From assembly GCF_003334405.1 (NCBI RefSeq), contig NZ_QOWM01000002.1: a stretch of 64,000 nucleotides of DNA. One strand, given 5' to 3'. Source of the stretch: Escherichia coli (GTDB lineage Bacteria; Pseudomonadota; Gammaproteobacteria; Enterobacterales; Enterobacteriaceae). A model generated the notes under the pieces. That model saw nothing but the letters and a program-made list of their open reading frames with translations, ran no database searches and had not been told where the DNA came from. The translations under genes and the position numbers were made by a program. Shown one piece after another: positions 62,861 through 63,080 of this stretch (position 1 is the stretch's first letter; the number at the start of each line of letters is the position of its first letter).

Positions 62861-62879
62861 TCAGATGACAAAGTACAAA

Positions 62880-63000
62880 AGTGCTCAGACAGTCCCCTCG
62901 CCCCTTTGGGGAGAGGGTTAGGGTGAGGGGAACAGGCCGGCACTGGCGCGAATATTTACCCTCACCCCGGCCCTCTCCCTGAAAGGGCGAGGGGGAAAAG
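62880..63000. repeat. ~120-bp GC-rich nested imperfect palindrome (same family as 59826..59925)
   Basis: cccctcgccc...agaggg...gggtgagggg...ccctcacccc...ccctctccc...gggcgaggggg in nested inverted arrangement. Confidence 0.65.
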
Positions 63001-63080
63001 CGTGCCAACATTGAAGATTGAGCCAGTTTGTTAGCAATCTCAAAGATACGTCAACGAATTAATTTTTCTCGGAAAAACAA

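Follow-up and report, generated by a model that had tools for sequence, protein, structure and literature searches.

Inverted BoxC pair behind the gcvTHP terminator of Escherichia coli as the core of a probable MITE-like insertion

Introduction

The spacer between gcvP and ygfF in Escherichia coli contains a large GC-rich nested palindrome. As judged by exact matches to a published motif, this palindrome is an inverted pair of BoxC elements, one of type A and one of type B, already known under four names and catalogued at this exact locus. The pair forms the core of a longer composite repeat, which was probably inserted behind the gcvTHP terminator as a MITE-like element and would be carried along there as genomic baggage, not maintained as a regulatory site. 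The history that we propose runs from an ancestral spacer of ~60 bp, through the gain of an Escherichia-specific composite of ~180 bp, to decay by slippage and to the loss of ygfF in nearly half of the strains. The identification as a BoxC pair accounts for a prominent palindrome next to a well-studied operon, and otherwise little is at stake. The insertion history at gcvP-ygfF argues against the reading of this DNA as a 'conserved regulatory switch' that is found in the literature.

Results and Discussion

Structure of the gcvP-ygfF spacer

The DNA analysed (the window, a stretch of 64 kb) is K-12-like, and positions 62600-63300 are 100% identical to E. coli strain TG1. The genes gcvT, gcvH and gcvP are on the plus strand. 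The gcvP stop codon is at 62814 and ygfF, which the ORF list and the annotation give as an SDR oxidoreductase gene, extends from 63081 to 63824 on the same strand; the spacer between them measures 266 bp. The intrinsic terminator of gcvTHP, read as an inverted repeat from the sequence, occupies 62837-62860 (plus strand) and consists of a hairpin and a T-run (AAAGGCGC-TTCG-GCGCCTTT-TTAG). An automatic promoter and terminator scan of 62700-63200 missed this hairpin and is uninformative for it. In a comparison of spacers, orthologues of the hairpin were found in Kluyvera, Klebsiella and other genera. All E. coli alleles are the same up to 62860 and differ beyond this point. The composite starts directly behind the terminator, which can thus be regarded as the insertion target.

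A first-pass annotation of the window had reported a GC-rich nested palindrome at 62865-63005, behind the gcvP terminator and upstream of ygfF. The palindrome is real and these coordinates cover it, the full repeated unit being longer (about 62859-63040); its placement 3' of the gcvP stop codon and terminator hairpin and 5' of the ygfF start codon is also correct. A repeat search resolved an inverted repeat with arms of 39 nt at 62894-62932 and 62956-62994, which are 82% complementary and separated by 23 nt. Each arm contains a C-tract/G-tract hairpin of its own, so that the palindrome is nested. Folding was calculated with ViennaRNA, which counts Watson-Crick pairs only. The whole spacer (62815-63080) gave -110.8 kcal/mol as RNA (z = -6.9, none of 200 shuffles being as stable), and the composite (62859-63040) gave -41.3 kcal/mol as DNA (z = -4.75).

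The palindrome matches the BoxC/TMECO/HPG family

The published TMECO pattern is 5'-CCCTCNCCC N3-6 GGGNGAGGG N3 GGGNGAGGG-3' (Holder et al. 2015, PMC4666352). A search of the 64-kb window returned exactly two matches, one in each arm of the palindrome, at 62895-62929 on the plus strand and at 62959-62993 on the minus strand, where 0.00 were expected from shuffles. The left arm, CCCTCGCCCC-TTT-GGGGAGAGGG-TTA-GGGTGAGGG, has TTA as its second loop (type A) and is TMECO #11 and HPG1 #33. The right arm, which reads CCCTCGCCC-TTTCA-GGGAGAGGG-CCG-GGGTGAGGG on the minus strand, has CCG as its second loop (type B) and is TMECO #10 and HPG2 #32. The two are inverted relative to each other, as BoxC/TMECO pairs require. 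The same motif search had been proposed for the copy between gcvH and gcvP, the first one in the first-pass annotation. This copy, at 59844-59891, is a degenerate BoxC pair with 2-3 mismatches per 19-nt core and fails the strict pattern; the gcvP-ygfF copy had been described as the more complete of the two. Intact BoxC pairs are present in the gcvH-gcvP slot of Enterobacter, Kluyvera and Pseudocitrobacter.

The arm sequences are those of entries #10 and #11 in Table 1 of Holder et al. (2015), who place them in strain MG1655 at 3,045,989-3,046,024 and 3,046,087-3,046,052, respectively, and count five inverted A+B pairs in that genome, this one included (PMC4666352). The same authors equate TMECO with what was called BoxC in the 1990s and with the PIT elements of Hoyne and Maher (2000). 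Kaplan et al. (2016) list both cores as quadruplex motifs at ygfF-gcvP, with midpoints 3046013 and 3046063 (PMC5100583). An early K-12 GenBank record carried 33 annotated BoxC elements of 51-59 bp, a survey of stem-loops recovered BoxC as a known family, and the copy number of BoxC/TMECO given for K-12 is 23-33. Since the MG1655 RefSeq annotation has no repeat_region feature at the gcvP-ygfF spacer, we took the identity from these papers. The first-pass annotation had not recognised the element as BoxC/TMECO.

A 121-nt query located the family at between 1 and 31 places in each E. coli genome, the median being 17, and no annotated feature lay beneath these places among the matches listed, which makes them intergenic. 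In Enterobacter asburiae the BoxC copy number reaches 143. The core in the gcvP-ygfF spacer is the same as BoxC/PIT/TMECO/HPG in every respect, being an inverted A+B pair that is intergenic, multi-copy and variable between strains. However, the BoxC publications stop at the motif of 34-36 nt (56 bp for BoxC), whereas the repeated unit at gcvP-ygfF is ~182 bp long and includes a leader, a spacer, a trailer and termini.

Several other identities were considered and rejected. The arms are built of C/G-tract blocks and have no REP consensus (of the GCCGGATG...CATCCGGC type, with the GTAG tag), so they are not REP or BIME elements; true REPs do occur in alternative alleles at gcvP-ygfF. The large palindrome is not an intrinsic terminator in its own right, because what comes after it is GAAAAGCG (plus strand) or ACTGTCTGAGC (minus strand) instead of a T-run, and the terminator scan found nothing. 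Two small ORFs on the minus strand, at 62835-63011 (58 aa) and 62918-63043 (41 aa), were rejected as coding since the paralogues differ by indels and since a 1-nt deletion allele, seen in nine of 25 sampled rows, would break the frame. Finally, an Rfam scan of 59700-63200 at E <= 1 gave no family at its gathering score; the sub-threshold matches were spurious, all to eukaryotic microRNA models, and scored 20-33 bits where the gathering scores are 37-105.

The BoxC pair is the core of a ~182-bp repeated unit

The repeated unit extends over ~182 bp, from 62859 to 63040, and consists, in this order, of a left terminus, a leader, BoxC-A (+), a conserved spacer, BoxC-B (-), a trailer and a right terminus. 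The left terminus (62859-62873, plus strand) is AGTCAGATGACAAAG; it was identified by a pattern with 3 mismatches, resembles the left terminus AGACTGMTGACAAAC of YPAL/RU-2 and RIP elements, and has homologous leaders in the alx-sstT, yijF-gldA and fepB-entC copies. The leader proper, TACAAAAGTGCTCAGACAGTC (62874-62894, plus strand), is common to type-A BoxC copies, those at adk-hemH and hrpB-mrcB included, as judged by alignment and blastn. Between the two BoxC units lies the spacer GAACAGGCCGGCACTGGCGCGAATATTTA (62930-62958), which alignment shows to be conserved among composite copies. The right trailer, GGGAAAAGCGTGCCAACATTGAAGATTGAGCC (62994-63025, plus strand), is shared with the yijF-gldA copy and in part with that at alx-sstT. 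The right terminus (63026-63040, minus strand; AGATTGCTAACAAAC on the minus and GTTTGTTAGCAATCT on the plus strand) was found by the pattern with 2 mismatches. It is inverted with respect to the left one, the two ends being inverted versions of a single motif, and the same terminus adjoins the adk terminator.

Near-full-length paralogues of the unit are dispersed in E. coli. With the yijF-gldA copy of strain VCSW5, blastn aligned 62855-63044 over 191 nt at 85% identity, and the alx-sstT and fepB-entC copies show 85% identity over 149-161 nt and 139 nt, respectively. In these paralogues the identity takes in the spacer between the BoxC units and ~35 nt on each side. At adk-hemH, a single BoxC has kept the leader together with the A unit and the beginning of the spacer, as well as the right terminus, which lies beside the adk terminator; it looks like a deleted composite. 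Phages and true plasmids contained essentially no copies of the composite. An association with such replicons was rejected, as the plasmid matches at the top of the list were E. coli replicons of ~0.1-5 Mb, several of them chromosome-sized, and the three phage matches were partial.

We found no description of a ~182-bp composite with YPAL/RIP-like termini and terminator-hairpin duplications in the accessible open literature; the older papers of Bachellier (1999), De Gregorio (2006) and Hoyne (2000) were not covered. In the open literature, we found no functional work on BoxC/TMECO more recent than Holder et al. (2015) and Kaplan et al. (2016).

Insertion in the Escherichia lineage

The locus was compared with 80 species or loci of Enterobacterales obtained in a search for YgfF relatives, a set in which other Escherichia species are absent. 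About 70 of the 80 keep the order gcvH-gcvP-ygfF, mostly with bglA next, and they range from Citrobacter, Enterobacter and Klebsiella out to Erwinia, Pantoea, Rahnella and Yersinia nurmii. In these genera the gcvP-ygfF spacer is mostly 55-80 bp long and contains the terminator hairpin, the T-run, a strong Shine-Dalgarno sequence and the ATG. In E. coli, ~200 extra bp, nearly all of them composite, begin right behind the T-run. None of the ~70 syntenic species carries the composite in this spacer, nor did any have a strict TMECO there. Conserved presence in distant genera, which the first-pass annotation had taken as a sign of a functional site, is thus the opposite of what we observed. The absence from the ~70 species indicates that the composite is an Escherichia-lineage insertion placed directly behind the terminator T-run.

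The spacers of this region were also filled in other lineages. The gcvH-gcvP and ygfF-bglA spacers of many genera are occupied alternately by strict TMECOs or by REP/BIME elements, suggesting that they are recurrent landing sites. In Buttiauxella brennerae, the gcvP-ygfF spacer itself contains a separate BoxC-like pair in the opposite arrangement. The gcvP-ygfF spacer of Rahnella holds a related C/G-tract family.

The insertion would have parted ygfF from its ancestral, terminator-proximal Shine-Dalgarno sequence, which is GGGAGA in the spacer comparison against a weak CGGAAAAACAA-ATG in E. coli. It is plausible that the weak Shine-Dalgarno sequence and the hairpin of ~100 nt lowered ygfF expression before the gene was lost, and in this way the insertion may have helped ygfF to become dispensable.

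The position of ygfF in the other genera also bears on a possible role of the element at the RNA level. The ~100-nt perfect hairpin might stabilise the 3' end of transcripts reading through from gcvTHP or serve them as a back-up terminator, or it might give ygfF an insulating, structured 5' leader. With ygfF directly behind the terminator and provided with a strong Shine-Dalgarno sequence, expression by read-through is implied in those genera, and the E. coli element lies between the terminator and the next start codon and folds, as RNA, into the very stable structure given above. However, neither strand has a T-run behind the large hairpin, PIT elements had no terminator activity, no Rfam family reached its gathering score, and the promoter scan detected no sigma-70-like promoter in 62700-63200. 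We consider an RNA-level role very improbable, the least likely of the readings discussed here.

Alleles at gcvP-ygfF within E. coli

We then took a census of the alleles in 5,426 complete E. coli genomes. The gene ygfF is present in 3,053 of them, and a composite-bearing spacer in 3,007. In nine genomes, for example RMDEC465, a REP-IHF-REP (RIP/BIME-1) element sits at the same point, between two perfect 20-nt copies of the terminator hairpin. The remaining genomes, about 2,370 (~44%), lack both ygfF and the composite. In these, homology breaks off at 62860 and is found again from the bglA stop codon onwards, and the interval holds ~80 nt of unique sequence and a REP. We detected no remnant of ygfF or BoxC in this allele, in which only the terminator and the REP match anything. 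Presence or absence polymorphism between strains, which had been proposed as a check on the mobile-repeat interpretation, is therefore a fact at this locus, but not in the form of a clean empty site: no genome with ygfF behind a simple empty spacer was seen in the census.

It should be noted that near-fixation among the strains that have ygfF (3,007 of 3,053) is also what is expected of a useful element, that no empty site within E. coli was seen, and that the composite is not known to transpose or to be linked to a transposase. We infer its mobility from its distribution. The earlier view of the palindrome as a selfish intergenic repeat beside a terminator is supported by a dispersed family that has near-full-length paralogues and is absent at this place from other genera.

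Within the composite, variants of the slippage type affect both arms. A 6-nt deletion (AGGGTT) occurs in the left arm and a 12-nt deletion (CCCCGGCCCTCT) in the right arm, and each takes out exactly one G block and its loop. In both deletion alleles the quadruplex motif is gone, and a three-block arm competent for triplex or quadruplex formation is turned into a plain hairpin. In an evenly spaced sample, about five of 25 carrier rows were of such G-block-deleted types. Holder et al. refer to the loss of G blocks as a 'palindrome effect' (PMC4666352). The three G/C blocks of each arm could form a very stable hairpin, triplex or quadruplex when single-stranded, and this would make them prone to replication slippage.

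Holder et al. regard these loci as hot spots of instability or recombination, at which non-B structures stall replication; applied to gcvP-ygfF, the element would itself have caused the replacement that removed ygfF in ~44% of the strains. Holder et al. (2015, PMC4666352) did see greater variability at TMECO loci than at controls, and the locus studied here has three alleles, with a breakpoint exactly at the left end of the composite, in addition to the internal slippage deletions. The yijF-gldA copy is dimorphic too: 631 genomes carry a BoxC composite there, and in the two genomes examined with the alternative allele a two-REP BIME lies within the same flanks. On the other hand, the ygfF-less allele retains no BoxC remnant, its left breakpoint coincides with the point at which the conserved terminator ends and from which any change in the spacer would seem to start, and its right breakpoint is the bglA stop codon and not a repeat. 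Moreover, such a hot spot covers the consequences of the element but not the origin or dispersal of copies that are 85% identical. As an explanation of the locus, it appears unlikely to us, though less so than a regulatory or an RNA-level role.

The occurrence of BoxC and BIME within the same flanks at yijF-gldA indicates that the cargo of occupied sites is also replaced, and BoxC and REP elements take each other's place at gcvP-ygfF as well. This is a reservation to the insertion of a MITE-like element as the general mode of dispersal, as recombination or gene conversion may explain some of the spread of BoxC and REP elements.

A proposed regulatory role

Both arms conform to the canonical G-quadruplex motif of four runs of >=3 G with loops of 1-7 nt. 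The motif of the plus strand is at 62908-62931 (GGGG-AGA-GGG-TTA-GGG-TGA-GGGG) and that of the minus strand at 62959-62979 (GGG-AGA-GGG-CCG-GGG-TGA-GGG). For HPG1/HPG2, Kaplan et al. proposed a regulatory DNA switch; at gcvP-ygfF, the arms would then alternate among duplex, hairpin and G-quadruplex (or triplex) forms, thereby controlling transcription of gcvTHP or ygfF. The four G-tracts with 3-nt loops in both arms fit this proposal, as do measurements in vitro: an HPG2 oligonucleotide undergoes a K+/Mg2+-dependent change in circular dichroism (Kaplan et al. 2016, PMC5100583), and circular dichroism and NMR show a stable triplex for the isolated G-rich strand (Holder et al. 2015, PMC4666352). 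In addition, 13 HPG1 cores are identical in K-12 (PMC5100583), which could mean selection on structure and not recent spread.

However, when the complementary strand is present, only duplex is formed (PMC5100583, PMC4666352). No DMS footprint was seen in vivo, no promoter or terminator activity of PIT/TMECO was reported, and the genes beside the family belong to no common functional class (PMC4666352). To this we can add that one G block is deleted in roughly a fifth of the sampled carriers, that about 70 species have the orthologous spacer without the composite and that about 2,370 E. coli genomes are devoid of both composite and ygfF. The absence elsewhere, the loss of G blocks, the existence of three alleles and the missing T-run all argue against a conserved regulatory role, and we regard a switch as quite improbable, somewhat more so than a recombination hot spot.

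Termini and duplications of terminator hairpins

Insertion of the BoxC-pair composite as a MITE-like element, which we favour, is compatible with the behaviour of known elements. A non-autonomous element targeting terminator hairpins would have been inserted behind gcvTHP in the way of the YPAL-type elements and the E. coli RIP/BIME-1 elements, which appear to duplicate the hairpin on insertion. We compared the termini of the composite with the YPAL/RU-2 consensus of Delihas (2007, PMC2759123). The similarity of the left terminus to the YPAL left end was equalled by 1 of 500 shuffles, and that of the right terminus to the YPAL right end by 7 of 500; both matches are short (~15 nt) and give weak to moderate support. 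A local alignment over the whole length of the interior and the YPAL consensus was no better than shuffles (221 of 500). Termini like those of the composite also bound E. coli RIP/BIME-1 elements and the inserts of ~150 bp present at gcvP-ygfF in Cedecea colo and Enterobacter sp. Ag1.

Elements of this group are flanked by duplicated hairpins. Such duplications, three of them at RIP loci, measure 27 nt at yddM-fdnI, 27 aligned positions with one 4-nt gap at uspB-pitA, 37 nt at 38830-39040 of the window, and 17 and 19 nt in Cedecea and Enterobacter sp. Ag1, respectively; in each case, as for the 20-nt duplication around the RIP allele of RMDEC465, none of 1000 shuffles did as well. Around BoxC composites the duplications are decayed, those at yijF-gldA and alx-sstT being equalled by 0 and 8 of 1000 shuffles. 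At gcvP-ygfF, the segment AAAGATACGTCAACGAATTAATTTTT (63041-63066, plus strand) is a possible decayed second copy of the terminator hairpin and thus the putative right-hand target duplication. In a direct comparison with the first hairpin it was not significant (532 of 1000 shuffles), but an alignment sets it, in register, against the second hairpin that is intact in the RMDEC465 allele, with agreement at 12 of 21 positions; it is through this allele only that we infer a second terminator copy.

Three kinds of known elements resemble the composite. YPAL/RU-2 of Yersinia is 168 bp long, against about 182 bp for the composite, and both are non-coding and intergenic. Its termini, TTCAGACTGCTGACAAAC ... 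GCACTTTGTCAATAACCTCA / CACTTTGTCAATAACCTCA, are similar to AGTCAGATGACAAAG ... GTTTGTTAGCAATCT. Both sit at or beside dyad symmetries; the target duplications of YPAL are reported to be 3-26 bp long (PMC2229807), and the sister elements of the composite make long duplications of variable length. In contrast, the interiors are unrelated, and the duplication at gcvP-ygfF is decayed and not significant. RIP/BIME-1 elements (REP - IHF linker - REP) likewise consist of two palindromic units in inverted orientation around a conserved linker, resemble the composite in their leader and trailer termini, lie beside terminators, and form alternative alleles at the composite's own sites, gcvP-ygfF (RMDEC465) and yijF-gldA. 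They differ in that the units of the composite are BoxC, without the GTAG/REP consensus or an IHF-type linker. In the case of REPINs, the inverted REP doublets mobilised by RAYTs, the likeness lies in an inverted doublet with spacer as the replicating unit, which decays to singletons (as at adk-hemH). However, no RAYT or other transposase is known to be linked to BoxC, and transposition of the REPIN/IS200 type creates no target duplication, whereas the sister elements of the composite have long ones.

These likenesses raise the possibility that BoxC pairs, RIP/BIME-1 and YPAL-type MITEs are cargo variants of one insertion 'shell'. The shell would have termini close to ACTGMTGACAAAC ... CTTTGTCA(N)CAAT and would integrate at intrinsic-terminator hairpins with duplication of the whole hairpin (17-37 bp), and its cargo would be swappable at an occupied site, as BoxC and REP alternate at gcvP-ygfF and yijF-gldA. 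We put this forward tentatively, as an idea that could well prove wrong and that is clearly less secure than the insertion of the composite itself; part of it may already be described in the papers of Bachellier (1999), De Gregorio (2006) and Hoyne (2000). If the shared termini and hairpin duplications hold genome-wide, they would suggest that several enterobacterial repeat families are mobilised by a common machinery. If the shell is real, a single mobilisation mechanism, directed at hairpins or cruciforms, would serve three families that have been kept apart for 30 years. The RU-3 element of Delihas is a REP-IHF-REP element and not BoxC (PMC2759123).

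Alternative alleles of the gcvP-ygfF spacer in E. coli

The presence of ygfF varies among E. coli strains: 3,053 of 5,426 complete genomes carry the gene (window 62860-64000; loci L001 and L002). In genomes that lack it, ∼80 nt of unique sequence and then a REP separate the gcvP terminator from the bglA stop codon. The two alleles also differ in the final two codons of bglA (…EKL* versus …ENL*). A third allele of the spacer was found in nine genomes, in which a RIP/BIME-1 element (REP-IHF-REP) replaces the BoxC pair (positions 468-700 of locus L096, E. coli RMDEC465). This element is flanked on both sides by the gcvP terminator hairpin, as a perfect 20-nt duplication, and the ygfF allele linked to this form of the spacer has just 93.7% identity to that of K-12. 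In E. coli HH97 (L098) ygfF is reduced to its last ∼47 nt upstream of bglA, preceded by an odd low-complexity GC-rich sequence; this remnant may stem from an independent deletion or from an error of assembly.

The gcvP terminator (window 62837-62860), though evident, was missed by the consensus terminator scan, likely because the T-run is consumed by A:T pairing at the stem base.

The same spacer in other genera

In Cedecea colo and Enterobacter sp. Ag1 (L039 and L052), the gcvP-ygfF spacer carries a ∼150-bp insert whose termini resemble those of the Yersinia MITE YPAL, and which sits between two copies of the host's own gcvP terminator hairpin (17-19-nt duplication). BoxC-like pairs in the opposite arrangement occupy the spacer of Buttiauxella brennerae, and Rahnella spp. 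contain in the same spacer a related C-tract/G-tract/G-tract family (CTCCCTCCCC..GGGGAGGG..GGGGTGGGG) that apparently stands in for a classical terminator (L040, L043 and L056 for both taxa). The spacer of Hafnia psychrotolerans (L058) extends over 1,055 bp and is filled with a unit of roughly 40-50 bp (…AAGGTCAAGACCTTGGGTTGCCACCCAAACCGGCCTT…) repeated head to tail.

BoxC and BIME elements at other sites

The yijF-gldA intergenic slot contains the BoxC composite in 631 genomes (L093, L094 and L095), and a two-REP BIME in both of the alternative-allele genomes examined (n=2). The flanking sequences are identical between the BoxC and BIME alleles and contain a second, decayed copy of the gldA terminator.

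Within the window, a 37-nt direct repeat that takes in a terminator hairpin together with its T-run (AGGCCCGCTCTGCGGG..TTTTTTCGCCAAAAGCAA) brackets a RIP/BIME-1 with two REPs and an IHF-type linker (38830-39040). The two-REP BIME at 7180-7322 is bounded by the same leader and trailer termini (GATGACAAATGC ... CTTTGTTATCAATCT), with a terminator hairpin (GGGGCCAGCAAATGCTGGCC and T-run) immediately downstream; no significant flanking duplication was detected around it.

Inside the operon, the gcvH-gcvP spacer of Enterobacter, Kluyvera, Pseudocitrobacter and others harbours a BoxC A+B pair that is intact. In further species this spacer contains REP/BIME elements, and in E. coli the BoxC pair there is degenerate (window 59831-59903). 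Two readings fit these observations (loci L008, L012, L015, L017, L020-L022, L025, L028, L033 and L065): the insertion is old and shared, or the spacer is a site where elements land recurrently.

In the search of E. coli genomes, the number of BoxC places per genome ranged from 1 to 31, with only one or two in the ST131 genome among those listed and in several other sampled genomes. Outside E. coli chromosomes, two Campylobacter phage records showed partial matches to the composite of about 65 nt, and Azospirillum and Rhizobium plasmids showed G/C-block matches; these matches may reflect contamination or unrelated triplex-type motifs.
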